Source of the DNA: an uncultured Gammaproteobacteria bacterium
GTDB lineage: Bacteria; Patescibacteriota; Microgenomatia; Levybacterales; GWA1-39-11
Length of the DNA stretch: 64,000 nucleotides
Reading direction: 5' to 3'
Assembly (NCBI GenBank): GCA_964452165.1
Contig: CAYVKP010000001.1
Coordinates: 426,375 to 490,374 of the forward strand
This document shows positions 18,766-58,271 of this stretch, in pieces. The translations under genes and the position numbers were made by a program. The notes under the pieces are model-generated. The model was not told the origin of the DNA. It saw nothing but the letters and a program-made list of their open reading frames with translations, and made no database searches. How positions within the stretch are numbered: position 1 is the stretch's first letter; each line of letters begins with the position of its first letter.

Positions 18766-21161
18766 GAATTCCTCTATTTCCTCTAATCGTTTCGGTTTTA
18801 ATATCTGCTTTCTTTTTCTTTCAGATCTTTTCGGGAAAAATCCCCTTCCCCGGAGATCTACTGGTAGGAAATTACGAGCCCTATAAGTCTTTGTCTTACG
18901 GAGGGTTTGCCCCGGGCGCTGTCCCTAATAAAGCTCAGGGACCTGATGTAATCAAAGAGCTATTGCCGTGGAAAAAATTTACAATCGATAGCTTCAAAAA
19001 AATGGAGCTACCCCTTTGGGATCCTTACAATTTTTCCGGCAATCCAATGATGGCAAATTTTCAAAGTGGAGTTTTCTATCCAGGTAACCTGGTATTCTTT
19101 CTTCTCAGCTTTGAGAACGCATGGACGTTATATATTTTTCTTGCGCCCGTTTTATCCATTCTATTCACTTACCTATTTTTAAGAAGACTAAAGTTGGCCT
19201 TCTGGCCTTCAATTTTTGGTGGAGTCTCTTTTGCGTTCTGCCTTTATATGACGGTTTGGATAGAGTATGGGAATATTGGTCATACTTTTGTTTTTCTCCC
19301 GCTGATCCTTTATTTTGCCGACAAACTAATCGAGAAGACAGATAAAATAAGTTTTCTTGGAATTGTTGTTGCTGGATTTTGCGCGGCTCTCGCAGGCTAC
19401 ATACAGGGTCTTTTTTATATTTACGCAATTGTTTTTGTTTACTTTTTGATAAAAAGCAATTCTCTCAAAAAATTGAATTTCAGAAAAACATTTGTATTTA
19501 TCTCCACCTTAATATTTCCCATAATTCTGTCGGCTTTCCAGATCCTGCCAACACTTGAATTATTTGGTAATTCTACGAGGGGTAATTATACGTTCTCCCA
19601 AATCGAGAAGATGCTTAATCCAATTTATTATTTGATAACAGTTGTGGCTCCTGATTTTTTTGGAAACCCAGCCGCCCGAAATTATTGGTTTAACGGTACA
19701 TATATAGAACGGGCATCGTATTTCGGCTTGATTCCGTTGATTTTTGCAATTCTTGCAATAGTTTCAATCAAAAAAGTAGAAGTGAAAATATTCACGATTC
19801 TTTTTCTTTTTTCTCTTCTAATCTCGACAGACCTTTTTGTTACTAGATTTTTCTATCTGATCCCAATCCCCGTTCTGTCGACTACGGTTGCCACTAGAAT
19901 TCTAAGTATCTTATCTTTTTCCGGGGCAATTCTTGCGGCTTTTGGATTTGATTACGTGTTGGAAAATAAGAACAAGAAAAAGATTTTTATGATTAGTCTT
20001 TCACTGCTTGCAATACTGGGAGGAGCATTTTTGCTTTCGATAATTTATCCTAAGACCACCACCAATATTAGTCTTATTGCGGAGGCGAACATTGCTAAAA
20101 GAAATCTGATCGTTCCGCTTACGACCCTGATTGTATTCATTGGCTCAACTATGATTTTTGTTTCTAGGTTTGAGATATTCAAGAGACATCATAAAAACTT
20201 TTACATTTTCGCTGTTCTTGCCATTACAATTCTTGAGTTGTTTTATTATTTCCAAAAGATTACGCCTTTTGCTCCCAAAAGCTATTTATATCCGCAAGCA
20301 CCCGTCGTTGATTTTATAAAGAATAATGCCGGGATTAATCGTTATTGGGGATACGGTTTTGCATATATCGAAAGTAATTTCCAAACTTTTGACCAAACGT
20401 TTTCAACTGAAGGAAATGATCCTCTCCACATCAAGAACTACACCGAGATTTTGGCCGCTAGTAAAACCGGTAGGCTCCCCGAAATTCTTCCCCGGCCCGA
20501 TGCTAATATTGCTGGGGGGTTTGGTAGTGAGGATCTTTCCGAAAATATTTATCGGCGGAAAATCCTAAATATCACCGGCGTAAAATACGTTTTAAATAAA
20601 GACGAAGGGATAAAGGAAGAAGCAAATCCTGACAATGTTACTTTCCCTCCGGATCGTTATAAATTGGCATGGCAAAATGGTTTCTGGCAAGCATATGAAA
20701 ATTTGGATATGACACCCCGTTTCTTTTTAACAAACGAATATGTTGTTGTCCCGAATAAGAGTAGGGCGCTAGAGACTATTTTTGCTTCGGACTTTGACGA
20801 AAAGAAAAAGCTCATTTTGTATGAAGATCCCAAGGTTTCGGGGGGACAACTTTTGCAAAGCACAAACCTCATTTCCTATTCACAAAATAGAGTAGAGATC
20901 CATTCTAGTTCTTCGGGACCGGCCCTTCTTTACCTTTCAGATAATTACTATCCTGGTTGGCAGGCGAGCATCGATGGAAAAAATAGTAAGATTTATCTTG
21001 CGGATTACAGTTTTAGAGCAGTTGCGGTTCCGGCAGGACCGCATAAAATAGTTTTTTCTTTCCATCCTAAAAAATTTTATTACGGACTTTATATATCAGC
21101 AGTAGCCCTTTTAGGACTTTTGGTCTATTTGTTTAAATTCAATTTCAAAAATGAAAAATAA
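18762..21161 (+). CDS. YfhO-family GT-C membrane protein (800 aa). Start at 'MRIPLFPL', overlapping the upstream stop as ATGA
   Basis: 'LPLWDPYNFSGNPMMANFQSGVFYPGN' and the C-terminal 'YYPGWQASIDGKNSKIYLADYSFRAVAVPAGPHKIVFSFHP' match the YfhO N- and C-terminal signatures. Confidence 0.8.
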   Translation: MRIPLFPLIVSVLISAFFFFQIFSGKIPFPGDLLVGNYEPYKSLSYGGFAPGAVPNKAQGPDVIKELLPWKKFTIDSFKKMELPLWDPYNFSGNPMMANFQSGVFYPGNLVFFLLSFENAWTLYIFLAPVLSILFTYLFLRRLKLAFWPSIFGGVSFAFCLYMTVWIEYGNIGHTFVFLPLILYFADKLIEKTDKISFLGIVVAGFCAALAGYIQGLFYIYAIVFVYFLIKSNSLKKLNFRKTFVFISTLIFPIILSAFQILPTLELFGNSTRGNYTFSQIEKMLNPIYYLITVVAPDFFGNPAARNYWFNGTYIERASYFGLIPLIFAILAIVSIKKVEVKIFTILFLFSLLISTDLFVTRFFYLIPIPVLSTTVATRILSILSFSGAILAAFGFDYVLENKNKKKIFMISLSLLAILGGAFLLSIIYPKTTTNISLIAEANIAKRNLIVPLTTLIVFIGSTMIFVSRFEIFKRHHKNFYIFAVLAITILELFYYFQKITPFAPKSYLYPQAPVVDFIKNNAGINRYWGYGFAYIESNFQTFDQTFSTEGNDPLHIKNYTEILAASKTGRLPEILPRPDANIAGGFGSEDLSENIYRRKILNITGVKYVLNKDEGIKEEANPDNVTFPPDRYKLAWQNGFWQAYENLDMTPRFFLTNEYVVVPNKSRALETIFASDFDEKKKLILYEDPKVSGGQLLQSTNLISYSQNRVEIHSSSSGPALLYLSDNYYPGWQASIDGKNSKIYLADYSFRAVAVPAGPHKIVFSFHPKKFYYGLYISAVALLGLLVYLFKFNFKNEK

Positions 21162-22704
21162 ATACATTTATATTGTCCTCTTAATTTTATTTGTAATTCC
21201 GTCTTTCTGGTTCCTTGCAAAACCGGGTTTTATTACAACGGATGATGGTAATTGGATGATAATCCGCTTCTCAGCTTTTTATCAAGCTTTGCGAGACGGT
21301 CAATTTCCTGTTCGATTTCTAACCAGACTTAATTTTGGATATGGTTATCCGGTTGCAAACTTTTTATATCCCGCATTTATGTATCTTGCCGTTCCTTTTA
21401 AGATTGCCGGTTTGAGTTTTATCAACTGCATAAAAATAATAATAGGACTTAGTATCGTGTCCTCGGGACTATTTATGTTTTTATGGTTGAAACGCTTTTT
21501 TGATGAAGTGAGTTGTTTTTTCGCAAGTCTTTTTTATGTTTACGCCCCGTATCATCTCTACGACCTGTCAAAAAGAGGTTCTGTTGGTGAATTGCTCTCT
21601 CTCGCGGTTTTCCCGTTTGTCTTGTGGCAAGTAGAAAGAGAAGATTTAGTATTATCATCCTTGGGATTGGCACTGCTTATCGTATCTCATAACACCCTGG
21701 CCATTCTGTTCGTTTTAGCAATTATCCTCTATATGATTGGGTCTTTATATTCTCAAAAGAATAAGAAAAAGCTTTTAGACTTTTACAAGAAAACCTTACT
21801 TTTCGGCTTTGGAATTTCTGCTTTTTTCTCCCTGCCCGCGATACTTGAACTGGGCAATACGGTTTTCTCAAAAACTCACATATCCGACTTCAACACGTAT
21901 TTTGCAGACTACAATTTAATAGGAATAACAACGTTTATTATTATTCTTGTTGCGGCGGGGCTTTTAGTAAAAAACAATTTACTTAGAAAACACAAAATGA
22001 CAGTCGTTTTTATAATTGTTGCATTATTTTGTATTTTCCTCGCGTCTTCATTTAGTGCGCCTTTTTGGGAATTTCTTCCCGTGTCGTTTATACAATTTCC
22101 ATTCCGTCTTTTATCACTCGCGCTTATTTGTGTTGCTTTTCTTCTGGCTTTTTCTCTTTCTCAAATCCCAATTAAGTTTAGAATTGGTGCAGGAGTTCTT
22201 CTTGTCATCGCTACAATGTATTTTTCAAAAGATTATTTATTGCCCAAAAATTTTAATCTTCAAGACGATAGTTTTTATTCCACAAACGAAGCAACAACTA
22301 CAGTAATGGACGAATATATGCCAAGGTGGGTTGCAAAAAAACCAAGTAGCCATTTCGAAAATAAGGTTGATGTGGTAAAAGGCGAAGGACAAGTACAAAA
22401 TATCACCTACAATGCTGATAAAATATCATTTGATTATGTATCATCATCTCCCGCGCAAGTCAGAATAAACACAATTTATTATCCCGGGTGGCAAGCATAT
22501 TCCGATAATCAACCCAAAGCCATTTTCTATGATAATGACCAAGGAACCATGGACTTAAAACTGGGGGGCAAAGACCAAAAGATTACTCTTGTTTTTGGTG
22601 AAACTCAAGAAAGATTGCTAGCGGACGCAATTTCAATCATGTCTCTACTCGCATTGTCTACATTGGTATACAAGAATAAAATACTCAATTTGTTTAAGAA
22701 ATGA
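21151..22704 (+). CDS. Short YfhO-related polytopic membrane protein, 'family A' paralog 1 (517 aa)
   Basis: It shares motifs with four paralogs: first-loop 'TDDGNW...FPVRF...NFGYGYPVANFLYP', 'YAPYHLYDLSKRGSVGE', 'FQFPFR', and a C-terminal 'YYPGWQAY.D'. Confidence 0.7.
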   Translation: MKNKYIYIVLLILFVIPSFWFLAKPGFITTDDGNWMIIRFSAFYQALRDGQFPVRFLTRLNFGYGYPVANFLYPAFMYLAVPFKIAGLSFINCIKIIIGLSIVSSGLFMFLWLKRFFDEVSCFFASLFYVYAPYHLYDLSKRGSVGELLSLAVFPFVLWQVEREDLVLSSLGLALLIVSHNTLAILFVLAIILYMIGSLYSQKNKKKLLDFYKKTLLFGFGISAFFSLPAILELGNTVFSKTHISDFNTYFADYNLIGITTFIIILVAAGLLVKNNLLRKHKMTVVFIIVALFCIFLASSFSAPFWEFLPVSFIQFPFRLLSLALICVAFLLAFSLSQIPIKFRIGAGVLLVIATMYFSKDYLLPKNFNLQDDSFYSTNEATTTVMDEYMPRWVAKKPSSHFENKVDVVKGEGQVQNITYNADKISFDYVSSSPAQVRINTIYYPGWQAYSDNQPKAIFYDNDQGTMDLKLGGKDQKITLVFGETQERLLADAISIMSLLALSTLVYKNKILNLFKK

Positions 22705-24233
22705 AAATAAAACAATTCCTAGTAGATAATTGGACATTAATTGTTTATCTTGTCATCTCAATTATTGCAGTCTTGCCGTTCCTGGGAAGCGGTTTTTTCC
22801 AAATTCATGACGATGTCCAAGTGGCACGAGTTTTTGAGATGGCCAAAAGTTTGTCGGCTGGTATGTTTCCTGCCCGGTGGGTTCCCGATCTTGGATACGG
22901 GGCAGGCTATCCCATCTTCAACTTCTATTCTGTCCTACCTTATTATATAGGCGGTTTTTTGACCACCTTAGGTTTGAATGCACTGTTTTCAACGAAAGTG
23001 GTATTTGTTGCAGGGATCATCGGGTCCGGTGTATCCATGTATTTTTTGACAAAATCCTTCTTTGGAAGAGTTCCTGCTCTTGTTTCGGCGATCATTTACT
23101 TATACTTTCCCTACCACGCCGTTAACATCTACGTCAGAGGAGATCTGGCAGAGCTTTTTGCCTATCTCTTCCTTCCATTAGTATTTTTATCTTTCTATAA
23201 AATTCACGAGATTGGAAGGTATACGAAATTCTATATTGCTTTGGGATCGACGTCTATTGCAGCAGTAATCATCTCCCACAATTTATCCTTCCTAATGCTT
23301 TTGCCTTTCATGGTAATTTTTATTTTAGTATCGGTTATTACCGGGAAAGAAAGAAAACAACTATTCGTTTCTTACGCTGCCGTTATTTTTTTGGCGTTTT
23401 TGATTTCCGCATTTTATGCTATCCCCGCTGCCCTTGAAGCCAGATTTACCAACGTAACCTCAGTTTTGGGGGGTGGCTCAGATCCTCGTGATCACTTCAT
23501 TTGTATTTCTCAATTGTGGGATAGTCCATGGGGATTTGGTGGTTCTGCTCCGGGATGCGCTGATGGAATAAGTTTTAAGCTGGGGAAGTCTAATGTGATA
23601 TTTGCATTGCTTGGAATAATCCTCGCTTTGATTAGCACTAAAAGATTGAAAGAAAAAAAGTTCGTGGTCCTATCATCCATAGGATTTCTGGTCTTCTCAA
23701 TTTTTATGCTCCTCCCACTCTCATTACCAATTTGGATTCTGCCCCTTATGGCGTTTCTTCAGTTTCCGTGGAGATTCCTTAATTTTGTGGGGCTTTTCAC
23801 AAGTATTCTAATAGGCTTTGCGGTTTGGGAGATCAGAAGTTTGAGAAATAGAAAATTTCTCATTGTGATATCGGTTTTGATTATCGGGGCAACACTTCTT
23901 CTTAATGCCAAGCTCTTTGCTCCGCAGAGAGTCTTTAGCAGAGCATCTTCCTACTATACAAATACAAATTATCTTAATTGGTCTGCATCAAAAATTTCAG
24001 ATGAGTATATGCCTAAAGGCTTTAAAAGTCCTTCATCTCCGGGTGCGGTTAAGACATCGCTTTCAGGTATACGTCAGGACAGCTTTTATAAAAAAGATTC
24101 TGTTAGTGGCTCATTTAAATTCGAGTCTGGAGAAACCTTACTGGAGAAGGCTTCGAATTTGGTGAGTTTGGTTGGAGTTGTAGCTTTAGTAATTGTTATA
24201 ATAAGTAAACCATATGGCAAAAATACTTCCTGA
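22701..24233 (+). CDS. Short YfhO-related polytopic membrane protein, family A paralog 2 (510 aa)
   Basis: 'HDDVQVARVFEMAKSL..GMFPARWVPDLGYGAGYPIFNFY', 'YFPYHAVNIYVRGDLAE' and 'FLQFPWRF'. It overlaps the upstream gene as ATGA. Confidence 0.7.
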   Translation: MKIKQFLVDNWTLIVYLVISIIAVLPFLGSGFFQIHDDVQVARVFEMAKSLSAGMFPARWVPDLGYGAGYPIFNFYSVLPYYIGGFLTTLGLNALFSTKVVFVAGIIGSGVSMYFLTKSFFGRVPALVSAIIYLYFPYHAVNIYVRGDLAELFAYLFLPLVFLSFYKIHEIGRYTKFYIALGSTSIAAVIISHNLSFLMLLPFMVIFILVSVITGKERKQLFVSYAAVIFLAFLISAFYAIPAALEARFTNVTSVLGGGSDPRDHFICISQLWDSPWGFGGSAPGCADGISFKLGKSNVIFALLGIILALISTKRLKEKKFVVLSSIGFLVFSIFMLLPLSLPIWILPLMAFLQFPWRFLNFVGLFTSILIGFAVWEIRSLRNRKFLIVISVLIIGATLLLNAKLFAPQRVFSRASSYYTNTNYLNWSASKISDEYMPKGFKSPSSPGAVKTSLSGIRQDSFYKKDSVSGSFKFESGETLLEKASNLVSLVGVVALVIVIISKPYGKNTS

Positions 24234-24933
24234 ATTATCCATATTTTTTCCTTTTTGGAACGAGGAAAAAAACATACGAGAAGTAGTTTTAAAAGCTTCT
24301 CAAGTCGCGCACGAAGTAGCTGAGAAATGGGAAATAATAATAGTTAATGATGGCTCTTCTGACAACACGCTTGGCGAGGCAGAAGCTCTTGTTAAATCGG
24401 AAAAAAACATTCGAATTATTTCTCACACGCCTAACAGGGGATACGGAGCTGCAATTAAGGAAGGTCTTGAGAAGTCAAAATACAACTACGTGGTATTTAC
24501 CGATGGGGACGGGCAATTTGATTTTTCCGAGGTGGATAAGTTTGTAGAAAATATTGAAGATGTAGATATGGTCATTGGTTACAGGAAAAAAAGGAGAGAC
24601 CACAATCTAGCAAAAAGACTTATGCTTATGAACTTACTTAAAGCTTGGGATTTTGTCCTCTTTGGGTTTTTGTTTCGCGATATAGACTGCGGTTTTAAAA
24701 TGTTCACACGAAGAGCAATTGATGAAATATCTCCATTACGAAGTGAGGGCGCAATGATAACAACCGAAATTCTTGCAAAGGCTGTAAGGAAGAAACTAAA
24801 AATTAAGCAGGTAGAAGTAAGTCACTACCAAAGAAAATTCGGAAAGCAAACCGGCGCAAATCTCCCCGTTATCGTGCGAGCTATACTCGAGAGTTTGATT
24901 CTTTGGTCCGATATACACAACAAGAGAATATAA
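24214..24933 (+). CDS. GT2 family glycosyltransferase (DPM1-like)
   Basis: 'LSIFFPFWNEEKNI...EIIIVNDGSSDNT...VVFTDGDGQFD' are GT-A DxD motifs. Confidence 0.8.
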   Translation: MAKILPELSIFFPFWNEEKNIREVVLKASQVAHEVAEKWEIIIVNDGSSDNTLGEAEALVKSEKNIRIISHTPNRGYGAAIKEGLEKSKYNYVVFTDGDGQFDFSEVDKFVENIEDVDMVIGYRKKRRDHNLAKRLMLMNLLKAWDFVLFGFLFRDIDCGFKMFTRRAIDEISPLRSEGAMITTEILAKAVRKKLKIKQVEVSHYQRKFGKQTGANLPVIVRAILESLILWSDIHNKRI

Positions 24934-24936
24934 CGA

Positions 24937-26379
24937 ATGGAAAAGTCGAGTTCTTCAATAGTAGAGCAGACGGTTAAAGGGATTATTGCGTTTATCTCTC
25001 GTACGGTCATACTCGATATTCTAACCGTTGGCACATCGATAGTAATATTTAGCATTTTTTCTGCGGCTCAAGTAGGAATATATACTGTTGTAATCGCAAT
25101 TCAAAGAGTAATAAGTTTTTTTACAGACTTTGGTTTTGGTGCAGCACTCGTTCAGAAAAAAGATGATTTAACCCGTGAAGATTTAAGGACGAGCTTTACT
25201 CTCCAGTCTTCTGTAACGGGTGCAATATTTTTGGCTATACTTTTATTGAAATCTCCGATCTCCTCATTGCTCAGATTGAACGGTGACGCATACGGCCTTC
25301 TGCTCGCCTTGGTATTTACGATTTTTCTTTCATCTTTCAAAGTTATTCCGTCAATTCTACTTGAGCGAAAAATCCATTTTCATAAATTAGTTATACCGCA
25401 ACTCGTCGAATCAGTCGTTTTTAATGTCATACTTCTAATTCTTGCCCTAAGACACTTCGGGATTGCAGCCTACACTTGGGCGTTTCTGATATCAAGCATT
25501 GCAAGCGTCCCATTCTATTATATTGTTTCTCCGTGGGAAATTGGTCTCGGCGTACATAAGGCAGCTTTAGTCCATTTAAAGTTCGGCCTTCAATTTCAGG
25601 CAAAAAATGTTTTAGCAACCATCAAGGACGATTTCATGACTGTTGTTTTGAGGTGGTTTTTAAGTTTTTCCCAGATCGGATTTATAGGCTTTGCTCAGAG
25701 CCTCGCCTTTTACCCTTATCGTTATTTTGTTGACAGTGTGACTCGTGTAACATTCTCAACATATGCTCGTTTTCAAAATGATAAAAAAATGCTCACGGCA
25801 TCAGTGGAAAAATCGCTCTTCTTTGTTTCTCTAGTAATGTTTCCGCTATTGACAGGTCTTATAATTGTCGGGCCTTATCTGATCAGATATTTTCCTCATT
25901 GGAATGGTAAATGGGATGCTGCCTATATGTCTCTGGTGTTTTTTTCGCTTAACGCCATGGTGTCCTCGCTTTCGGGGATACTCATCAATGTTTTGGACTC
26001 CAACGGCAAAGTTAAGTGGACCTTACAGCTTATGGTTATTTGGACGATCATGATCTGGGTTGTTACTCCTATTATGATATTGCTCTTCAGTTTCAATGGT
26101 GTTGCTATTGCTTCCTTCCTGGTTACTCTTACGATCCTATACACGGTCAGTCTCGTCCATAAAATTATCGACTTCAAGTTTTGGACGAGTATTTATCAAC
26201 CTATCGTGGCTGCTGTTATAATGGGAATAATTACTTATGTCCTGTGTGTAGTATTGGTCAAGACTTTTGTGGCACTTATTATTGTGAGTCTTGTTTGTGG
26301 AGGAATATATTTTGGGATAATGTACGTATTCAAGGGTAAAGAGGTCATAAGCGATGTAAGAAAGTTAATCAAAAAATGA
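24937..26379 (+). CDS. wzx: Wzx/RfbX-type oligosaccharide flippase (MOP superfamily)
   Basis: It has 12–14 TM segments and an N-terminus 'SRTVILDILTVGTSIVIFSIFSAAQVGIYTVVIAIQ' typical of polysaccharide biosynthesis proteins. Confidence 0.7.
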   Translation: MEKSSSSIVEQTVKGIIAFISRTVILDILTVGTSIVIFSIFSAAQVGIYTVVIAIQRVISFFTDFGFGAALVQKKDDLTREDLRTSFTLQSSVTGAIFLAILLLKSPISSLLRLNGDAYGLLLALVFTIFLSSFKVIPSILLERKIHFHKLVIPQLVESVVFNVILLILALRHFGIAAYTWAFLISSIASVPFYYIVSPWEIGLGVHKAALVHLKFGLQFQAKNVLATIKDDFMTVVLRWFLSFSQIGFIGFAQSLAFYPYRYFVDSVTRVTFSTYARFQNDKKMLTASVEKSLFFVSLVMFPLLTGLIIVGPYLIRYFPHWNGKWDAAYMSLVFFSLNAMVSSLSGILINVLDSNGKVKWTLQLMVIWTIMIWVVTPIMILLFSFNGVAIASFLVTLTILYTVSLVHKIIDFKFWTSIYQPIVAAVIMGIITYVLCVVLVKTFVALIIVSLVCGGIYFGIMYVFKGKEVISDVRKLIKK

Positions 26380-27311: not shown

Positions 27312-27313
27312 TA

Positions 27314-28225: not shown

Positions 28226-28265
28226 AGTTAAGTGGTAAAATGCAGATATTATAAAGGTAACTAGT

Positions 28266-48477: not shown

Positions 48478-48479
48478 AT

Positions 48480-50132: not shown

Positions 50133-51409
50133 AAAAATCAATTTCGAAATTTTGGAATACAGAAATTTTTGGAGTCGGCCTTCCTGTAATTATCGTTTTT
50201 GCTATAGAGATAGTCTTAAGATCTTATCAAATTGATATCAAAAACCCGTTTGGATATGATCAAGTTGATAATGCATGGGCCGCCAAAAACATAATAGTTA
50301 ACCACTGGTATCCTCTCGTTGGAATGGTGGCAAAAGCCAATTCGGGAATTTATATAGGACCGGCATATTATTATTTGATATCTGTCTTCTATTGGTTTTC
50401 AAACCTTAATCCGGTTGCGTCAAGTCTATTTGCTATTTTCACAAGCGCCGTCTCTTTTTGGATTTTATATTACGCGACTTCTCGTTTATTTTCAAAAGAA
50501 GTGGCATTTATTGCAGTTTTCATAAATACGTTTAACTTCATAACAATGTTATTTGACAAAATCCAATGGCCCGTAGGGTTTTTGCCTGCGATATCACTTT
50601 TGATTTTCTACCTTTTATATAAATCAATAACAGGGGATATCAAGAAATTAATCCCATTAGGTATCGCAATAGGAATTGCTTTTAATCTACATTTCACAGC
50701 AATATTTTTTCCAATTATCGCACTTCTATGCTTTCCTTTTTTGCCCAGAACCCGACAAACTCTTAAGTATTTATTTTTGTCGCTTCTATCGTTTATTCCA
50801 TGGCTCATCCCGAGCGGCATTTACATGTGGGTAAACAAAACGTCAGGTTCCAACGTTTCATATATCAATAACTATTATCACGGATTTCATCTTCGAAGAT
50901 TCCTGCAGATAATAGGTGATGCATTTTTGCATTTTGATACTTATCTTCCTGATAATATCAAAAAGATAAAGTTAGCATTGCCCATAATTTTTGCGATAGT
51001 ATATCTTAAGGATAAAATCAAAAATGAAAATAAAATTAAATTTCTTTACATTGCCGGTCTATTCTTCTTAGTGCCATGGATAGTTTTTTCTACCTATAAA
51101 GGTGAGATGACTGATTATTATTACTCCATACATCGTTTTTTGGCCTTAGTAATTATCTCCTACCTAATTTATAAAATTTGGTTGGTAAAAAATATTGTCG
51201 CAAAAGCATTCGTCTTGGTGATGCTTAGTATTTACGCGTACTACAACCTGGCTATGTATTTGCCCTATAAAGATGTAGGTCTTGCAAAGCGAACCGAAAG
51301 AGCGGTGGATGCAGTTAACGGGGGAAGCAGGATAGAATTTCAGGTTGGGGTTCCTGAGTCATATATATATTACTACTTGATGAGACAAAGGGGAAAAGAC
51401 GTTTACTAA
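50129..51409 (+). CDS. Polytopic membrane protein, GT-C-like (426 aa), family uncertain
   Basis: It has an early-loop acidic motif 'YDQVDNAWAAKNI' and about 11 TM segments. It overlaps the upstream gene as ATGA. Confidence 0.5.
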   Translation: MKKSISKFWNTEIFGVGLPVIIVFAIEIVLRSYQIDIKNPFGYDQVDNAWAAKNIIVNHWYPLVGMVAKANSGIYIGPAYYYLISVFYWFSNLNPVASSLFAIFTSAVSFWILYYATSRLFSKEVAFIAVFINTFNFITMLFDKIQWPVGFLPAISLLIFYLLYKSITGDIKKLIPLGIAIGIAFNLHFTAIFFPIIALLCFPFLPRTRQTLKYLFLSLLSFIPWLIPSGIYMWVNKTSGSNVSYINNYYHGFHLRRFLQIIGDAFLHFDTYLPDNIKKIKLALPIIFAIVYLKDKIKNENKIKFLYIAGLFFLVPWIVFSTYKGEMTDYYYSIHRFLALVIISYLIYKIWLVKNIVAKAFVLVMLSIYAYYNLAMYLPYKDVGLAKRTERAVDAVNGGSRIEFQVGVPESYIYYYLMRQRGKDVY

Positions 51410-51453
51410 TACTGCCTCAAGCTCAGCCAATTGTGATATCATAATATTTATCA

Positions 51454-52227
51454 ATGCAGACCCTATCTGTAGTACTTGCGACATATAACGAAGAAAAAAA
51501 TCTAAAAGCTTGTCTTGAGAGTTTTGCCGACTTTGCAGATGAGATCGTAATCGTTGACGGTTCATCTACCGACAAAACTGCTGAGATTGCTCGTGAATTC
51601 GGGGCAAAAGTTAAAGAGACCACAAACAAGCCGAATTTTCATATTAATAAGCAGATGGCAATTGATGCCGCAAAATGTGACTGGATACTTCAAATGGACG
51701 CCGATGAGCATGTCTCAAAAGAATTGAAGGAAGAAATTGCGGAAATACTAAAGGAGAATCCCAAGGAATACAATGGATATTGGATTTCGAGAAAAAACTT
51801 TTTCTTAGGCAGATTTCTTAAAAAGGGCGGGCAATTTCCGGATTACACACTGAGGCTTTATCGGAAAGGAAAAGGAAGGCTTCCACAAAAAGACGTGCAT
51901 GAACAGGCGGAAGTTGAGGGGAAAGTGGGACATCTTAAACACTCCTTATTACACTATCCTTATTCGAGCTTCGGTTTTTATTTGAAAAAGTGGAATAGGT
52001 ATAACGACTTCTCAGCAGCTCAGATCAAGGAAGAAGAAGAGAGTAAAAATATAATCCTGAAAATTTATGACGCATGTTTATATCTATTTGTGAAACCCAT
52101 TGTGTGGTTTCTTACAACCTACATTAGACATAAGGGATTTGTTGATTCTTGGCAGGGATTCGTTTTCTCGTTTTTCTCAGCTGCTAGATTTCCTGTATCT
52201 TATGTAATATATTTAACCAGATCATGA
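51454..52227 (+). CDS. GT2 family glycosyltransferase (WaaE/KdtX-like 'ADEIVIVD' subfamily)
   Basis: 'LSVVLATYNEEKNLKACLESFADFADEIVIVDGSSTDKTAEIAREFGAKV...LQMDADE'. Confidence 0.8.
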   Translation: MQTLSVVLATYNEEKNLKACLESFADFADEIVIVDGSSTDKTAEIAREFGAKVKETTNKPNFHINKQMAIDAAKCDWILQMDADEHVSKELKEEIAEILKENPKEYNGYWISRKNFFLGRFLKKGGQFPDYTLRLYRKGKGRLPQKDVHEQAEVEGKVGHLKHSLLHYPYSSFGFYLKKWNRYNDFSAAQIKEEEESKNIILKIYDACLYLFVKPIVWFLTTYIRHKGFVDSWQGFVFSFFSAARFPVSYVIYLTRS

Positions 52228-53210
52228 AAATTTTAGTAACCGGAGGAGCAGGATATATTGGAAGTTTTATGGCACGCGCCTTACTAGATAGGGGAGATCA
52301 GGTTGTGGTCTTCGATAGTCTTGAGAGAGGTCACGCTGAAGTCATTGACTCCAGATCGGAGTTTATTAAAGGCGATCTTAAGAACAAAACAGATGTTGAG
52401 GCAGTTTTTCAAAATAGAGGAATAGAAGCTGTTATGCATTTCGGTGCTTATGCGCTTGTAGAGGAGTCAACTCGGGAGCCAGATTTGTATTATCAAAACA
52501 ACGTAGTAGGTTCAGATAATCTATTTAGAGCGGCCGTAAAAAATGGTATCCATAGTTTAATATTCTCCTCAACTGCCGCGGTTTACGGCATTCCATCTCA
52601 AGTTCCAATTCCGGAAGATCACCCTAAGAATCCTACTAATCCTTATGGACAGACTAAACTAAAGGTGGAAGAGAATTTAGAGCAATTGAGAACAGAAAAT
52701 CCGGATACAAATTTTGCAGTACTACGCTACTTTAATGCAGCAGGCGCTGCTCCGACTGGACGATTCGGGGAGAACCACAAGCCGGAGACTCATATAATTC
52801 CACTTGCGATAAGAGCGGCTCTTTCGGGTTCTGAATTTAGTCTTTTCGGAACCGACTATGATACCCCAGATGGGACATGTATACGAGATTACATACACGT
52901 TCTCGATTTAGTTGATGCTCACATTCTGGCACTTCAAAAACTAAACCAAACTCTGGGTGGATTTTATTACAATGTTGGTACAGGCAAGGGGTATTCGAAT
53001 AGAGAAGTGGTTAGTGCAATTGAGAAAGTGAGCGGCAAAAAAATTGATGTAATTGAGAAGGGTAGAAGAGCCGGAGACCCCGATAGGTTGGTGGCAGATC
53101 CTTCCAGAATAAACCGAGAACTTTCTTTTAATCCTCATAATTCTGACCTTGAGACAATAGTCAAGAATGCTTGGGTTTGGCACAAAAACCAGTTTGATCA
53201 AATACAATGA
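52224..53210 (+). CDS. galE: UDP-glucose 4-epimerase
   Basis: 'MKILVTGGAGYIGS' is the NAD-binding GxxGxxG. 'SSTAAVYG' and 'PYGQTKL' give the catalytic YxxxK. 'LRYFNAAGA' is also present. Confidence 0.9.
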   Translation: MKILVTGGAGYIGSFMARALLDRGDQVVVFDSLERGHAEVIDSRSEFIKGDLKNKTDVEAVFQNRGIEAVMHFGAYALVEESTREPDLYYQNNVVGSDNLFRAAVKNGIHSLIFSSTAAVYGIPSQVPIPEDHPKNPTNPYGQTKLKVEENLEQLRTENPDTNFAVLRYFNAAGAAPTGRFGENHKPETHIIPLAIRAALSGSEFSLFGTDYDTPDGTCIRDYIHVLDLVDAHILALQKLNQTLGGFYYNVGTGKGYSNREVVSAIEKVSGKKIDVIEKGRRAGDPDRLVADPSRINRELSFNPHNSDLETIVKNAWVWHKNQFDQIQ

Positions 53211-53725
53211 GACGGTTACTCTCGTCGGTTATTCTTCTGTTTTTCCTATCTTCCCATGTAGTCTACGCCAGCTCTTCATACGTTTTGCCTTATCCATCAG
53301 CCATGCCAGGGAGCATATTCTACAAAATAGATCAGGTCAAAGAGCGACTCATGGGCCTATGGACTTTTGGTGATTTTGGGCAGTTCACATACAACCTGAA
53401 AGAATCGGATAAATATTTAGTAGAAGCAAAAACTTTATTTGATTACAACCAATACTTACTAGGTTATCAAGCCCTAATTAAATCGGACAATTATTTTAGG
53501 AAAATCGAACCTCATATTATTGCAGCAAAGAAACACGGCAAGAATATACAGGCGGAGGCCGCGACCCTGAAAGAAGCAGAGGAAAAACATATTGGAGAGC
53601 TCACAAAAATGAAAATGAATGTTCCGCAGATCTTCAATTGGCAACCGGAGAAGTCAAAATCTACAAATCTTGAACTTTGGTCTGCTATTGATAATTCTAT
53701 TAAACAAAGAGAAGGGGCTTTATGA
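53207..53725 (+). CDS. Hypothetical secreted protein (signal peptide, 172 aa)
   Basis: The N-terminus 'MRRLLSSVILLFFLSSHVVYASS' looks like a signal peptide. No family was recognised. Confidence 0.45.
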   Translation: MRRLLSSVILLFFLSSHVVYASSSYVLPYPSAMPGSIFYKIDQVKERLMGLWTFGDFGQFTYNLKESDKYLVEAKTLFDYNQYLLGYQALIKSDNYFRKIEPHIIAAKKHGKNIQAEAATLKEAEEKHIGELTKMKMNVPQIFNWQPEKSKSTNLELWSAIDNSIKQREGAL

Positions 53726-54840
53726 TTCGCTCGGTTTTAATTTATATCGTACTATTTTTCTTGTTCTCACTATTTACTTATCTTTTCATAGATCCTAATT
53801 TTTTATATCTTAAGTTTTTGTATTCGGGATTTTTCAGTGCTAATAGGTTAGTTACCACAACACTATACGTTTTCTTTATCTCAACGCTATTCTATCTGTA
53901 TGTGATTATTTTAAAAAAATCTAAAGATAGAGGGGTCGGTAAAATGAAAAAGCTAATAATAATACCACTTGCCGGTTTATTATCCTATCCGGCAGCACTT
54001 TCATTCGACCTATTCAACTATATAGCAACCGCAAAAGTTACTTTTCACTATTTTGAAAATCCGTACGTAATTATGCCGATTCAATTTTTTGGTGATCCAG
54101 TATTACTTTTTACTCACGCAGCTAATAAAACAGCGCTCTACGGGCCATTATGGATTCTATTGACATCTGTACCTTTTTATTCATCCTTTAATAATTACCT
54201 AATTTCCATAGCCCTTTTTAAATTACTGATAGCCGGGTTTTTCTTCGGAATAGTTTGGCTAATTTGGAAGATGACCAAAAGCTCCATGTCCGTATTATAT
54301 TTTGCCGCAAGTCCTTTGGTTTTGATCGAAACATTTGTGAGCGGACACAACGATGTGGTTATGATGTTTTTCGCTCTTGCTTCATTATATTTTCTTAAAG
54401 AAAAAAAAATCTACTATTCGATTATTCTACTTATATGCTCAATCCTCATAAAGTTTGCAACTCTGTTTCTCCTTCCCGTGTTCATTTACTATCTTTACCT
54501 CAAAATTAATAAGAAAGAAGTAGACTGGAATAGAATGTTTTTCATTTCCTTCTTTTTAATGTCGGTAGTATTTTTTCTCGCTCCAATTCGAGAGGAAATT
54601 TATCCATGGTATGCAATATGGCCCATGACATTCCTGTCACTATTTGTGACAGCAAAAAAGACAATTGCAGGAATTTTTACCGTTTTTTCTCTCGGCCTTA
54701 TGCTGCGGTATATTCCATTCATGTTGCTAGGCACGTATTTTGGTCCCACTCCTTTGATTAAAATACTTTTAACTTTTCTACCACCGACGTTATATTTTGC
54801 ATCGACCATTTTAATGAAGAAGAATAAGACTATCCAATAA
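53722..54840 (+). CDS. DUF2029/GT87-like GT-C polytopic membrane glycosyltransferase (paralog of 16009)
   Basis: 'FDLFNYIATAKVTFHYFENPY', 'SGHNDVVMMFFALASLYFLKEKK' and 'EEIYPWYAIWP' are collinear with the 16009 protein. Confidence 0.6.
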   Translation: MIRSVLIYIVLFFLFSLFTYLFIDPNFLYLKFLYSGFFSANRLVTTTLYVFFISTLFYLYVIILKKSKDRGVGKMKKLIIIPLAGLLSYPAALSFDLFNYIATAKVTFHYFENPYVIMPIQFFGDPVLLFTHAANKTALYGPLWILLTSVPFYSSFNNYLISIALFKLLIAGFFFGIVWLIWKMTKSSMSVLYFAASPLVLIETFVSGHNDVVMMFFALASLYFLKEKKIYYSIILLICSILIKFATLFLLPVFIYYLYLKINKKEVDWNRMFFISFFLMSVVFFLAPIREEIYPWYAIWPMTFLSLFVTAKKTIAGIFTVFSLGLMLRYIPFMLLGTYFGPTPLIKILLTFLPPTLYFASTILMKKNKTIQ

Positions 54841-54841
54841 G

Positions 54842-56665
54842 ATGTTGGCTTTATTTTTTCTACTGACAGTAATAAGTAATGGTTGGCTTTTGTCGAAGAA
54901 CTTCCTCTCAGATTACAAAAAAAACCTTCTTGCAAATTCTTTTATCCTTGGATCAATAACTTCTGTTTCGTTAATTACAGTTTTATTATTTGTAACTCAT
55001 GAGATTTCTCATGCGTTGTGGATATACGCTGGGATATCGGTATTTTTTTTCTTAATAAATCACAAAAGTGTTGGGGATATAAGGGAAACCCTCGATAGGA
55101 AAAACCTCATACATTTGGCAGTTTTTTTGTTAACGTTTCTAGTCTTTGAAAAATCTTTTTCTTACGACCCGCATAACAAACAATTTTTGATAGCATCGAA
55201 TCTATATCAAGATTTTGGTGCCCATATACCCTTTATGCGTTATCTGACTTTCGGAAAGAACTATATCCCAGAAATACCCTTTTTTGGTGGATCAGGCCTT
55301 ACATATCACTTTATGTTCGATTTTTACGCTGGAATACTTGAGTACTTAGGCTTGAGATTAGACTATGCCATCAATTTAATATCCACTCTTTCTTTTGTGT
55401 CGTTTGCCAGTGTAATGGTTACATTTGGCTACCGCTTTTTTAAAAGTAGAGCGGTGGGAGTTGTTGCGATTATTTTCATGATTCTAAATAGCGACTTATC
55501 AATCATGAATCTTATTGGTAAATACGGCTTATCTTTTGCTTCTATTTACCACAATAATACTTATCCTGTGGGAAATATATTGGGGTTGGTTATTAATGAG
55601 AACTTTCTTAATATAAATGTACTTCTTAATCAACGCCATTTAATTTTCGCGCTAGCAAGTTTGATTTTGATTTGCTCCAGCTTATTTGCTTCAAAAGGAA
55701 AACTAAACGGTATCCAAACGATTTTCTTAGGTACCATTATCGGACTTATGGTTTTCTGGCATGTATCCGTTTCGATTTGCATTTTCATTTTACTTTTTTC
55801 TTTCGGCTTATTTTTTAAAGACCTGAGAGGAGTTATCGTTAGGGTGTTGTTGGTCGCCTTGGTAGTAAGCGCCCCGCAATTTTACTATATCAAACTGCAT
55901 TCAGACAATAACATTGTATTTATGCCGGGATTCATGATAGCAAAATCTTTATCGGCTAAGAATTTTATTCTATTCTGGATATGGAATTTAGGGTTTTCAA
56001 TTCCAGTGGTAATATTCGGGTTTCTGGCTGGTAACAATCACCAGAGGAAGTTTTTCCTGTGTTTCTTACCCATTTTTATAGTTGCGAATTTGTTTCAATT
56101 CTCAAAAGACATGTTTGATAACCATAAGTTCTTCAATGTTTGGATAGTCTCACTGAACATGCTTGCAGCATATGGCGTTTGGAGCATTTTTAATAGGCAA
56201 AATTATAGATTTGTAGTAATACCCTTAGTTCTCCTTTTGACGGTTTCCGGGTTTCTTCATTTGGTGGTCGTAAAAAATGATGTGTATGCTCGGATAACAG
56301 ATTACAAGTTCAGTAGTACGTTCTCGTGGATAAATAAGAATACAAAATCGGAGGAGATATTGCTTACAAATGGGGAAATCTACGATCCTCTATCTATCGC
56401 AGGCGCCAAAATATTCCTAGGAAGACCCCGATATATTTATCTTTACGGAGGAGACCCGGGCGTTAGAATGTTTGATGAGTCATTAGTTTTTTCTGGCACA
56501 AATAAAAAAGCAATATTTAGCGTTCTAAAATCAAGTAAAATCAGATATATCGTAATTTATAAGACGGGATTTGCAACAAACGCCCAAAAAGTTAATACAG
56601 CCTTTATGAATGATAACTTTTTAAAAATTTATGAGAACAGCGAAAGCACTGTATACAAAATATAA
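54842..56665 (+). CDS. Large polytopic membrane protein (607 aa) of unknown family, possibly GT-C or polymerase-like
   Basis: It has about 12+ TM segments and a C-terminal soluble region. No motif was confidently assigned. Confidence 0.45.
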   Translation: MLALFFLLTVISNGWLLSKNFLSDYKKNLLANSFILGSITSVSLITVLLFVTHEISHALWIYAGISVFFFLINHKSVGDIRETLDRKNLIHLAVFLLTFLVFEKSFSYDPHNKQFLIASNLYQDFGAHIPFMRYLTFGKNYIPEIPFFGGSGLTYHFMFDFYAGILEYLGLRLDYAINLISTLSFVSFASVMVTFGYRFFKSRAVGVVAIIFMILNSDLSIMNLIGKYGLSFASIYHNNTYPVGNILGLVINENFLNINVLLNQRHLIFALASLILICSSLFASKGKLNGIQTIFLGTIIGLMVFWHVSVSICIFILLFSFGLFFKDLRGVIVRVLLVALVVSAPQFYYIKLHSDNNIVFMPGFMIAKSLSAKNFILFWIWNLGFSIPVVIFGFLAGNNHQRKFFLCFLPIFIVANLFQFSKDMFDNHKFFNVWIVSLNMLAAYGVWSIFNRQNYRFVVIPLVLLLTVSGFLHLVVVKNDVYARITDYKFSSTFSWINKNTKSEEILLTNGEIYDPLSIAGAKIFLGRPRYIYLYGGDPGVRMFDESLVFSGTNKKAIFSVLKSSKIRYIVIYKTGFATNAQKVNTAFMNDNFLKIYENSESTVYKI

Positions 56666-58271
56666 ATTCTTGCTTTTAAGCATAATTGTCTCCATCTTTG
56701 CCATTTTGGATTTATTCAATTATGGAATTCCTCCAACTCACGACGGAGAGTATCACGTTTTAAGATTCTGGCAATTTTATAAAGTTCTTGCATCTGGATT
56801 TTTGTATCCAAGATGGGCGCCCGATTTTAATAATGGTTTTGGGGTCCCTCTTTTTAATTATGTATATCCTCTTCCCAACTACATTGCCTCACTTTTTCAT
56901 TTTCTAGGATTTGGTTTTATCGATTCGCTCAAATTGAATATGGTGTCGGCAACCATTATAGGTGGGATATTTTTTTATCTCTGGACAAAAAAATATTGGG
57001 GGGAATTGGGAGGAGCGTTATCTTCAGTTTTTTATACTTTTTCTCCTTACCATTTCGTTGATATATATGTAAGAGGATCTGTTGGAGAGGTATGGGCCCT
57101 TGCTATCTTCCCGATACTTTTGTGGTCTTACGACGGTTTTATTGCAACTAAAAAAAGAACTTATCTTGCATTTTCTTGCGTAAGTCTGGGGCTTTTAATA
57201 CTTGCACATAACATATTAGCGTTAATGTTCTTCTGTTTTTTTATTTTATATTCTGCAATAGGATTTAAAAATAAAAGTGATTTATTGGCGTTTGCAATAA
57301 TAGTTTTGGTTGGGTTGGGTCTTGCCTCTCCTTTCTGGCTTCCCGCTCTTCTTGAGACCAAGTATGTTCAGGGACTTGCGATATTTGATATCAGTGCAGG
57401 TTTTACTGCCGTACATAAGTTTTTCGTCCCCACCTGGGGTTTCGGTATTTCTCCAAATGACCCATTAAATCCGATGTCGGTACAGATAGGCTATGCAAAT
57501 CTGTTTGCAATTTTTGTAAGTGCCATTTCCCTTATTTTTAAGAAACTAGGTAAGCTATCCATATTCTTTCTATTGTCATTTTTTGCAGTATTTTTCTTAA
57601 TGACTCCTTACTCAATTTTCCTTTGGAAACATATTCCTCTTTTTTCATATTTTCAATTTCCCTGGCGGCTTTTAAGTCTTGAGATTTTGATTTGCTCATA
57701 TCTTGCGGGGGGTGTAGTTTCAAATATAAAGGTGGAAAACAAAAAAATGAAATTCGTATTAATTATTGGCCTTTTTAGTTTGCCTTTATTGTTAGGTATT
57801 AGATATAGAAAGGCTTTCGTTTACTATCCAAGAAATGATAGTCATTATCTATCAAGATCTAACTTTACAGATGGGACTAATAGTCCGGGAAATGCATTTA
57901 ATACAAAGTGGTTGGACAAAGTTCCTCCTAAAGCCAAGAGCAGGATTAGTATTACAGGTGGTTCGGTTACATTAAAAAACTTGAAGATAACTCCCTTGTC
58001 TTATAATTTAGAAACAAGCTCCAGCCTAAGCTCTACCCTGCGAATTAATGCTGCCTATTTCCCGGGTTGGGAGGGGTCGCTCGACGGGCATAAGGTTTCC
58101 CTAGTTAACAAAAAAGGTTTAATATCGCTTGATATTCCAGAAGGCAACCATAAAGTACGGGTTTTTCTTGGAAGCACCAATATTCAAAAAATTTCCTATG
58201 TTTATTTTCTCCTTTCCCTCTTGTTTTTGGCTTTAATAACCAGAAGAACTATTGGTATAATTAAAAAATGA
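56631..58271 (+). CDS. Short YfhO-related polytopic membrane protein, family A paralog 5 (546 aa)
   Basis: 'THDGEYHVLRFWQFYKVL..GFLYPRWAPDFNNGFGVPLFNYVYP', 'FSPYHFVDIYVRGSVGE', 'FQFPWRL' and 'AYFPGWEGSLDGHKV'. Confidence 0.7.
   Translation: MRTAKALYTKYKFLLLSIIVSIFAILDLFNYGIPPTHDGEYHVLRFWQFYKVLASGFLYPRWAPDFNNGFGVPLFNYVYPLPNYIASLFHFLGFGFIDSLKLNMVSATIIGGIFFYLWTKKYWGELGGALSSVFYTFSPYHFVDIYVRGSVGEVWALAIFPILLWSYDGFIATKKRTYLAFSCVSLGLLILAHNILALMFFCFFILYSAIGFKNKSDLLAFAIIVLVGLGLASPFWLPALLETKYVQGLAIFDISAGFTAVHKFFVPTWGFGISPNDPLNPMSVQIGYANLFAIFVSAISLIFKKLGKLSIFFLLSFFAVFFLMTPYSIFLWKHIPLFSYFQFPWRLLSLEILICSYLAGGVVSNIKVENKKMKFVLIIGLFSLPLLLGIRYRKAFVYYPRNDSHYLSRSNFTDGTNSPGNAFNTKWLDKVPPKAKSRISITGGSVTLKNLKITPLSYNLETSSSLSSTLRINAAYFPGWEGSLDGHKVSLVNKKGLISLDIPEGNHKVRVFLGSTNIQKISYVYFLLSLLFLALITRRTIGIIKK

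Follow-up and report, generated by a model that had tools for sequence, protein, structure and literature searches.

Enzymes of the YfhO family use Und-P-sugars to glycosylate teichoic acids or surface proteins rich in Ser/Thr (PMC5836110, PMC8035078, PMC12041528). Examples have been described in B. subtilis and S. aureus (LTA GlcNAc transferase), in Listeria (WTA) and in streptococci, where PgtC2, PgfM1 and PgfM2 act in protein O-glycosylation. The family PF10131 (PTPS_related) is placed by Pfam in the GT-C clan CL0111 with the description 'function unknown' (PMC7801869). Our literature and PDB searches retrieved no experimentally studied PF10131 member and no solved structure, and AglS, the archaeal Dol-P-Man transferase, was considered as a characterised member but found no support from domain data in the literature search. 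No paper connecting Patescibacteria or CPR bacteria to YfhO or GT-C enzymes was retrieved by the literature search. Most Patescibacteria are uncultured; they are host-dependent bacteria of ultra-small size, and to our knowledge hardly anything has been learned about their surface chemistry.

The window (the whole stretch of 64,000 nucleotides analysed) contains a long run of co-directional glycosylation genes in which 21 of 36 junctions overlap and the widest intergenic gap is 294 nt. This operon of ~48 kb corresponds to about 7% of the ~0.65-0.76 Mb genome. The features of interest are:

15171..63758, + strand, co-directional glycosylation supercluster of 37 genes, reaching the window end
18651..21161, + strand, YfhO-family GT-C (836 aa; PF09586 91.3 bits), overlapping the start of copy 1
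21151..22704, + strand, copy 1, ORF (517 aa, the most divergent; family HMM E 4.9e-154)
22701..24233, + strand, copy 2, ORF (510 aa; PF10131 52.9 bits)
24214..24933, + strand, GT2 (239 aa; PF00535), candidate polyprenyl-phosphate sugar synthase directly downstream of copy 2
24937..26379, + strand, Wzx-like MOP flippase (480 aa; PF13440, PF01943)
31103..32749, + strand, copy 3, ORF (548 aa; PF10131 33.8 bits)
32730..35054, + strand, YfhO-family GT-C (774 aa; PF09586 91.9 bits), overlapping the end of copy 3
37131..39422, + strand, YfhO-family GT-C (763 aa; PF09586 77.9 bits)
40357..41076, + strand, GT2 (239 aa; PF00535), candidate polyprenyl-phosphate sugar synthase two genes upstream of copy 4
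41043..43451, + strand, YfhO-family GT-C (802 aa; PF09586 103 bits), overlapping the start of copy 4
43435..45090, + strand, copy 4, ORF (551 aa, the modelled reference; PF10131 66.6 bits)
54842..56665, + strand, GT-C-fold protein (607 aa) without a Pfam or NCBIfam model, upstream neighbour of copy 5
56631..58271, + strand, copy 5, ORF (546 aa; PF10131 49.0 bits)

The original prediction had named five paralogous ORFs starting at 21151, 22701, 31103, 43435 and 56631, and all were found at these coordinates on the + strand. Paralogy was confirmed by BLASTP, where all 10 copy-versus-copy pairs were significant (E 3e-35 to 1e-94; pairwise identity 24-34%, and 27-34% in the BLASTP alignments); copy 1 matched the other four copies with E 3e-35 to 5e-65. 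When the six-frame ORFs of the whole window were searched, the family HMM recovered precisely these five copies and no additional fragments. Judged by these alignments the five copies are true paralogs that diverged anciently.

All five copies matched PF10131 in a Pfam scan. Four of them scored at or above the curated gathering cut-off of 26.4 bits while copy 1 was marginally under it (25.6 bits, E 5.5e-6); copy 1 and its ortholog in L004 score below PF10131 detection. In every copy only positions ~1-317 of the 621 model positions were aligned, equivalent to the TM2-TM10 core, and with the C-terminal half of the model unmatched none of the copies gave a full-length match. By these profile matches the five copies are divergent or partial members of PF10131. 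No NCBIfam family was matched by the five copies, and PDB sequence searches with 5- and 136-sequence profiles gave only chance matches to casein kinase (E~1.7). At E<=1e-3 the family amounts to 21,725 cluster representatives. A precomputed PF10131 match and a name derived from it are attached to thousands of relatives in Patescibacteria, and relatives in public databases go by the names '6-pyruvoyl-tetrahydropterin synthase-related' or 'YfhO family' protein. The copies were originally proposed to form an uncharacterised new GT-C subfamily. This part has to be given up, since the family is already in Pfam as PF10131 of the GT-C clan. The profile search did, however, lead to a family without a characterised member, and the conserved acidic loop was present. 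The classification is thus already known.

GT-C enzymes carry a catalytic acid in the loop after TM1. At the start of its first outer loop the short family follows the pattern H-D-(G)-(E/D)-x-(Q/H)-(V/I)-x-R, of which the Asp is invariant and located as follows:

21244-21246, + strand, copy 1, loop TDDG, invariant Asp D32 (codon check)
22809-22811, + strand, copy 2, loop HDD, invariant Asp D37 (codon check)
31196-31198, + strand, copy 3, loop HDGQ, invariant Asp D32 (alignment)
43537-43734, + strand, copy 4, first outer loop, residues 35-100
43561-43563, + strand, copy 4, invariant Asp D43
56742-56744, + strand, copy 5, loop HDGE, invariant Asp D38 (alignment)

Within the HDG motif proposed for this loop, alignment and codon check found the Asp alone to be invariant across the five copies; HDG itself varies in copies 1 and 2, and the remainder of the copy 1 loop is also off-motif (IIR instead of VAR, VRF instead of PRW). 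Conservation was assessed in 136 diverse relatives that are 24-42% identical to copy 4. The sole invariant column was D43 (136 of 136), i.e. a conserved acidic motif in the first extracytoplasmic loop as in GT-C enzymes. The second position after the Asp was mostly E, D or N, resulting in a modified DxE/DxD motif, and H42, R50, R66, R154, E159, H199, E248 and R354 (copy 4) were kept in at least 90% of the relatives. As the PF10131 model begins ~30-40 residues downstream of the invariant Asp, the likely catalytic motif falls outside the Pfam domain boundary. The predicted FxPYxFVDLYVRG and FQFPWRF motifs were recovered in all five copies in a form that tolerates variants, namely (A/F/S)PY..(V/L)(D/N).Y(V)RG...(G/A)E and QFP(W/F)R(F/L), with Y129, P133, Y134, R142, G143, E147, Q315, F316, P317 and R319 (copy 1 numbering) invariant in the five. 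The original description of the motifs was overstated for copies 1 and 2.

The model and alignments gave 12 TM helices per protein with cytoplasmic N- and C-termini. The short paralogs are polytopic proteins with a GT-C fold, within the range of 8-13 TM helices of such glycosyltransferases. Topology was assigned by model-guided loop statistics, which superseded a crude hydropathy scan that was too noisy. The combined share of Lys and Arg was 34% in the seven segments proposed to be cytoplasmic and 9% on the outer side, and all conserved charged residues mapped to the outer side. The loop after TM1 had been predicted to face outward; this is in agreement with the positive-inside rule, which puts the Asp outside the cell.

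An outer beta-sandwich held by the terminal TM helix was found in four of the five copies. In copy 4 these elements are:

44743-44979, + strand, beta-sandwich, residues 437-515
residues 519-540, last TM helix

TM11 and TM12 are separated by an outer region of ~120 aa, which measures ~65 aa in copy 2. The original prediction had placed a (Y/F)FPGWxAxVDG motif at the C-terminus. A motif of the form (Y/F)(F/Y)PGW..(V/I)DG is indeed common to the short family and the four ~800-aa YfhO proteins, but not to every copy. Copy 3 has a complete C-terminal domain (YFPGWKVYVDG) and copy 5 reads YFPGWEGSLDG, while copy 1 reads YYPGW..SDN without the DG. Copy 2 lacks YFPGW..DG, and its beta-sandwich is mostly gone through an internal deletion of ~55 aa. 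In the alignment this deletion was common to copy 2 and its nearest orthologs, and more distant orthologs retained the beta-sandwich. Because copy 2 is conserved without it, the beta-sandwich, which is the putative acceptor-binding domain, is not essential to all members; this counts against the mechanism proposed below.

The relation to YfhO was analyzed by hhalign. Both the TM core (probability 98.3%, E 1.3e-14) and the C-terminal beta-sandwich with terminal TM helix (probability 98%, E 2.6e-13) of the four neighbouring YfhO proteins were found homologous to those of the short family, and the short-family HMM matched three YfhO paralogs with E 1e-14 to 6e-21. A far weaker relation was seen with the PMT_2 GT-Cs that this cluster also encodes (E 1.4e-5 over 86 columns). 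The claim that the short and full-length proteins form one superfamily is therefore well founded, and at the level of sequence PF10131 is a sister family of YfhO.

Besides the short paralogs the cluster contains four YfhO, six PMT_2 and up to three more GT-Cs, and a short-family gene frequently shows translational coupling with a gene for YfhO or PMT_2. The best NCBIfam similarities of the GT2 at 24214 were to AglJ, PgfS, ArnC and PpgS, all far under the equivalog cut-offs. The GT2 at 40357 resembled AglJ, ArnC, PgfS and PpgS in NCBIfam, and DPMS (5mlz), ArnC and GtrB (5ekp) in a PDB sequence search. Each copy was originally said to sit beside a YfhO and/or a GT2, which fails for copy 5, flanked by the Pfam-less GT-C and a GT4. 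No GtrA-type small flippase was evident in the window, which counts against the mechanism proposed below. Syntenic orthologs occur in other Patescibacteria contigs, and for the three copies examined (1, 2 and 4) orthologs were found at the same syntenic position in other Levybacteria. Synteny and family size support that the genes are functional. Long fusion relatives exist (PF10131+PMT_2 and PF10131x2) but were given less weight as Rosetta-stone evidence, since neighboring genes overlap by 4 nt and one assembly error could fuse them.

As a whole, these observations are best explained by the five copies being PF10131/GT-C members which transfer single sugars from polyprenyl phosphate, with inversion, outside the cell, and we consider this probable. 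Starting from family, fold, topology, conservation and synteny, we infer donor type, roles of the catalytic residues and acceptor as follows. The cytoplasmic GT2s at 24214 and 40357 would load single sugars onto polyprenyl phosphate, the lipid-linked sugar would then be flipped across the membrane, and each paralog would act as an inverting transferase that attaches it to a hydroxyl group on an acceptor outside the cytoplasm. In this scheme the loop Asp would be the catalytic base, the outer-face residues R50, R66, R154, E159, H199, E248 and R354 would hold the donor phosphate, possibly with a metal, and the beta-sandwich would hold the glycan acceptor. Together with YfhO, PMT_2 and other GT-Cs, the five paralogs would serve in building or decorating a glycopolymer or glycoprotein of the cell surface, on the outer side of the membrane. 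The putative polyprenyl-phosphate sugar donor is proposed from the context of the adjacent GT2s, which resemble AglJ, ArnC, DPMS, GtrB and PgfS. Because the copies diverged anciently and the orthologs of copies 1, 2 and 4 are syntenic, the presence of five copies suggests that each differs from the others in its specificity for donor, acceptor or linkage.

A wider reading is tentative. The 16-18 GT-Cs of the operon (five paralogs, four YfhO, six PMT_2, the Pfam-less GT-C at 54842 and two MptA/B-like proteins) might form an extracytoplasmic glycan assembly line that makes a Microgenomates-specific surface polymer stepwise from polyprenyl-P-monosaccharides, with the PF10131/HD-loop clade as a distinct, unclassified glycosyltransferase family whose catalytic signature lies outside the Pfam model. 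Mycobacteria assemble arabinogalactan and LAM from polyprenyl-P-monosaccharides in a comparable stepwise manner.

Alternatively, the copies could be oligosaccharyltransferase- or ligase-like and take an oligosaccharide that was assembled beforehand from undecaprenyl-diphosphate, as one block, onto a protein or polymer, with cytoplasmic GT2/GT4 building the oligosaccharide and Wzx-like flippases exporting it. Two Wzx-like MOP flippases (24937 and 59205) and several soluble GT2/GT4 are typical of Und-PP-oligosaccharide assembly, no Wzy or WaaL was recognised within the window, and en-bloc transfer is compatible with the fold because oligosaccharyltransferases are among the best structural matches of the model. 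Still, we find this unlikely. By sequence the closest relatives are the YfhO enzymes, whose donors are Und-P-monosaccharides (PMC8035078). The WWD.G motif of oligosaccharyltransferases was found in none of the five copies and none of the 136 relatives, the outer domain is a beta-sandwich of ~80 residues unlike the OST-type C-terminal domain, and an initiating phosphoglycosyltransferase was not found in the window.

The copies could also be inactive as transferases in spite of their GT-C fold, and serve as scaffold, acceptor-presenting partner or lipid-carrier handler for the adjacent YfhO/PMT_2. PIG-U, a GT-C-fold subunit of the GPI transamidase, would be the analogy. The frequent translational coupling and the PMT_2 fusions fit this proposal, and a review speculates on a possible dependence of small GT-Cs on partners (PMC8035078). 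However, the Asp is strictly invariant and lies where the catalytic residue is canonically found, and together with the outer ring of conserved Arg, His and Glu this is the pattern of an active site, which makes the proposal improbable. A 6-pyruvoyl-tetrahydropterin synthase-related enzyme of pterin metabolism, to which only the inherited PF10131 and NCBI record names point, can be dismissed as a historical misnomer refuted by fold and context, since the copies span the membrane with 12 TM helices in a GT-C fold, the PTPS domain was unmatched in every Pfam scan and the gene context is wholly glycosylation.

The analysis replaces a misleading pterin synthase-related name with a well-supported GT-C assignment. 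For PF10131, which spans over 20,000 sequence clusters and lacks a characterised member, it proposes a single catalytic residue and a topology. It also shows that the Pfam model boundary leaves out the likely active-site loop. Current understanding is not overturned. Since ~48 kb of a ~0.7-Mb chromosome is given to one operon in which outward-acting, lipid-donor glycosyltransferases predominate, surface glycans are likely central to the biology of the organism.

Compared to the structurally characterised class A GT-C enzymes (AglB/PglB/STT3, AftD, AftA, Pmt1/2/4, ArnT), the short family had no detectable sequence similarity to any PDB chain, and it carries neither the OST WWDYG motif nor MIR or other known accessory domains. 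Its outer domain also differs from class A, being a small beta-sandwich at the C-terminus that the final TM helix ties back to the membrane. Component 27 (representative A0A7X7MB17; Durairaj et al., 2023, Nature 622:646, PMC10584680) is also a large bacterial GT-C family auto-annotated as YfhO. It forms a cluster separate from true YfhO, with links towards STT3/PglB. Compared by description only, the fit is poor, since component 27 is 'dark' (almost no Pfam) with a median of 665 aa, whereas the proteins analyzed here are 510-551 aa and carry PF10131; the Pfam-less ORF at 54842 (607 aa) is no less plausible as a relative of component 27.

The short paralogs are ~250 aa shorter than YfhO, and none of the five matched PF09586 at E<=0.01 (gathering cut-off 28.5 bits), so they do not belong to the YfhO family itself. 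[quoted passage not shown] The YfhO N-terminus carries its own conserved PD..(Y)PW motif, with which the HD loop of the short family does not align (hhalign probability 14%). An equivalence of HDG with 'PD..YPW' was therefore dropped, and the short family has, as predicted, a first-loop Asp motif of its own. The gene context is shared, as the short paralogs are linked to candidate GT2 polyprenyl-P sugar synthases in the manner of csbB-yfhO. By analogy, the short paralogs presumably share the three-component mechanism of YfhO systems (PMC5836110, PMC8035078, PMC12041528).

The original prediction of five short paralogs was confirmed with the following coordinates, all on the + strand:

21151-22704 (+), copy 1, 517 aa
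22701-24233 (+), copy 2, 510 aa
31103-32749 (+), copy 3, 548 aa
43435-45090 (+), copy 4, 551 aa
56631-58271 (+), copy 5, 546 aa

End-to-end alignment gave identities of 24-34%, and BLASTP was significant for all 10 copy pairs (E 3e-35 to 1e-94). A family HMM run against the six-frame ORFs of the window recovered the same five and no extra copy or fragment. The five copies are true paralogs, related at a level that chance cannot explain. The motifs first listed for the family were broadly right, but were overstated for copies 1 and 2. The Asp was the sole residue of the 'HDG' motif found to be invariant across the five copies, with copy 1 reading TDDG and copy 2 HDD. The C-terminal motif of copy 1 was YYPGW..SDN, from which the DG is absent, and copy 2 was without any C-terminal YFPGW..DG motif. 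Alignment of copy 2 with its orthologs revealed an internal deletion of ~55 aa in the C-terminal domain. The deletion was common to its nearest orthologs of ~510 aa, while distant orthologs (555-575 aa) retained (F/Y)FPAW..(V/I)(D/N)G.

All five copies are already covered by Pfam PF10131 ('PTPS_related'), which copies 1-5 matched with 25.6, 52.9, 33.8, 66.6, and 49.0 bits, respectively, relative to a cut-off of 26.4 bits. Pfam places PF10131, a family of unknown function, in its GT-C clan CL0111 (PMC7801869); a literature search on PF10131 found no other paper treating the family. No NCBIfam model matched the five copies, and no PDB chain was detectably similar to them in sequence. The same Pfam match is precomputed for thousands of relatives, and those with a name were called 'hypothetical protein', 'uncharacterized membrane protein', '6-pyruvoyl-tetrahydropterin synthase-related protein' and, once, 'YfhO family protein'. 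The proposed candidate uncharacterised subfamily is thus on record in Pfam, under a misnomer, although it is experimentally uncharacterised. The matched part of the PF10131 model was limited to positions 1-317 of 621. The alignment begins at about residue 73-89 of the copies, 30-40 residues past the invariant Asp motif of the first outer loop (the HD loop), so that the likely catalytic motif lies outside the Pfam domain.

When 1.84 billion cluster representatives were searched exhaustively with the HMM, 21,725 matched the family at E<=1e-3, of which 7,652 reached E<=1e-30. The five copies were aligned with 131 of the best representatives, which had 24-42% identity to copy 4. In this 136-sequence alignment D43 (copy 4 numbering) was the only strictly invariant column. 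Conservation of at least 90% was found for H42, R50, R66, Y141, P145, Y146, R154, E159, H199, P244, E248, W353, R354, and the C-terminal motif pair P476/W478. The pattern at the invariant Asp, H-D-(G or gap)-(E/D/N)-x-(Q/H)-(V/I)-x-R, reads as a modified form of the DxE/DxD/DD motifs used to define GT-C enzymes (PMC5836110, PMC8035078).

Some family representatives were very long (P0248, 3329 aa; P0249, 1670 aa; P0364, 1337 aa; P0246, 1116 aa; P0247, 1093 aa; P0351, 944 aa). They hold 2-6 matched modules, or PF10131 fused to a PMT_2 module or a YfhO C-terminus, and could be true multi-GT-C fusions or merged gene calls of neighbours overlapping by 4 nt.

The AlphaFold2 model of copy 4, built from 58 sequences, had a mean pLDDT of 94.4 and a pTM of 0.94. 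An N-terminal amphipathic helix is followed by TM1 and a first outer loop of 65 residues with two juxtamembrane helices, the first of which is capped by H42-D43-G44. Then come ten more TM helices, a beta-sandwich of eight strands (residues 437-515) and a last TM helix (residues 519-540). The model helices were mapped onto the alignment and charges were counted per segment. Lys and Arg made up 24-40% of the seven proposed cytoplasmic segments (34% overall) and 9% of the outer segments. All conserved charged residues (D43, R50, R66, R154, E159, H199, E248, and R354) were located on the outer side. This placement and the charge bias indicate that the HD loop faces outward, as had been proposed.

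The copies lie in a run of 37 co-directional genes (15171-63758, + strand, 48.6 kb) that is truncated by the window end, with 21 of 36 junctions overlapping and a biggest gap of 294 nt. Almost all of these genes concern glycosylation, including 16-18 GT-C enzymes. The cluster holds five PF10131 proteins, four YfhO proteins, six PMT_2 GT-Cs, eight GT2, three GT4, two Wzx-like flippases and one epimerase/dehydratase. The YfhO and PMT_2 genes start at:

18651, 32730, 37131, 41043 (+), YfhO proteins of ~800 aa, bona fide members of PF09586
17209, 45087, 46816, 48480, 50129, 62424 (+), PMT_2 GT-Cs

A YfhO and/or GT2 gene was expected beside each copy, and this was found for copies 1-4. Copy 1 lies directly after a YfhO gene, copy 2 directly before a GT2, copy 3 directly before a YfhO gene, and copy 4 has YfhO upstream and PMT_2 downstream. 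Copy 5 is instead flanked by ORF 54842, a 607-aa protein with a GT-C fold, and a GT4 (58268). The 239-aa GT2s at 24214 and 40357 were closest to polyprenyl-phosphate sugar synthases; they resembled AglJ, ArnC, PgfS, and PpgS of NCBIfam, all well under the equivalog cut-offs, and matched DPMS (5mlz), ArnC, and GtrB (5ekp) in PDB sequences.

Two polytopic membrane proteins, 16009-17163 (+, 384 aa) and 53722-54840 (+, 372 aa), form a paralogous pair (35.6% identity, E 5e-46) and had no Pfam match at E<=1e-3. The ortholog of the former at locus L004, on another contig, has a precomputed match to PF26314 (MptA_B_family), which takes its name from MptA and the GT-C mannosyltransferase MptB (PMC5836110). 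Should both be confirmed as MptA/B-like, the count of GT-C-type proteins in the window would rise to 18. Between the epimerase and the second of these MptA/B-like genes, the cluster also encodes a small DUF5667 protein (53207-53725, +, 172 aa), secreted or membrane-anchored, which has a signal or TM segment at its N-terminus. Mid-operon (28266-30996, +) are an HD-domain protein at 28266 and a split PEP-utilising enzyme. The mobile PEP-utilizers domain is at the end of one gene (28839-30161) and the PPDK_N ATP-binding domain is encoded by another (30163-30996), so that the pair is split and swapped in domain order compared to canonical PPDK/PEP synthase. Phospho-sugar or phosphoryl modification is a possibility for these genes.

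Both cluster halves recur gene for gene on other Patescibacteria contigs, from Levybacteria. Block 36074-51409 is matched by two loci (L001 and L002) and block 15171-28225 by L004, where copies 1 and 2 have tandem orthologs. Close relatives were confined to Microgenomates-group lineages (Levybacteria, Gottesmanbacteria, Woesebacteria, and Collierbacteria). Compared to the 650,109-bp NCBI contig bearing the window proteins and a complete Levyibacteriota chromosome of 762,565 bp, the cluster takes up roughly 6-7% of such a Patescibacteria genome (~0.65-0.76 Mb). Many GTDB representative MAGs among loci L007-L083 are titled 'uncultured Gammaproteobacteria bacterium' (TPA 'binchicken' and 'SRP..._co' assemblies); given that they carry this Microgenomates-type gene, the titles seem to be placeholders or taxonomic errors. 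Outside the cluster, a three-domain LigD (phosphoesterase, ligase, primase-polymerase; 826 aa) adjoins Ku (272 aa) at 8324-11622 (- strand), which gives this very small genome a full NHEJ pair, and a Lon protease is encoded at 5325-7727.

The best-supported reading is that the five copies probably act in a three-component scheme, as genetics has established for CsbB/GtcA/YfhO, GtrB/PgtC2, and PgfS/PgfM1 (PMC5836110, PMC8035078, PMC12041528). A cytoplasmic GT2 would make the polyprenyl-phosphate sugar, the sugar-lipid would be flipped across the membrane, and the GT-C would attach the sugar to an extracellular acceptor. D43 would be the catalytic base, outer-face Arg, His, and Glu, perhaps together with a metal, would bind the donor phosphate, and the beta-sandwich, present in four of five copies, would engage the acceptor glycan. 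A WWDYG-type OST motif was found in none of the 136 sequences, and en-bloc transfer of the OST or ligase type is considered improbable. A non-catalytic GT-C scaffold, set beside the invariant Asp, appears less probable still, and a literal pterin-synthase function, as the database name has it for a family of the GT-C clan, can be dismissed as next to impossible. For sugar transfer by the three-component scheme, the five ancient paralogs imply different specificities; syntenic positions were kept in other genomes for copies 1, 2, and 4, the three examined. The acceptor may be a polymer of the cell wall or surface proteins rich in Ser/Thr; an S-layer protein, a pilin or a polymer resembling teichoic acid are among the candidates.

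Profile-profile comparison of the short family (58-sequence alignment) with the four YfhO paralogs aligned the membrane core over 263 columns (probability 98.3%, E 1.3e-14) and the C-terminal domain with the terminal TM helix (probability 98%, E 2.6e-13), whereas the PMT_2 GT-Cs of the cluster gave only E 1.4e-5 over 86 columns. The label 'YfhO-related' is thus correct and specific. The first-loop region did not align to the YfhO N-terminus (probability 14%), so the HD motif belongs to the short family itself, in line with the original prediction. None of the five copies matched PF09586 at E<=0.01, and the outer region of ~390 aa in B. subtilis YfhO (PMC5836110) is absent from all of them. On these profiles, we regard the copies as a sister family of YfhO and not as members. 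New are the invariant Asp, which faces outward and is not covered by the Pfam model, the C-terminal domain of YfhO type in the short family, and the extreme GT-C density of the operon; a YfhO-like GT-C family apart from YfhO has a precedent in component 27 of Durairaj et al. 2023 (PMC10584680).
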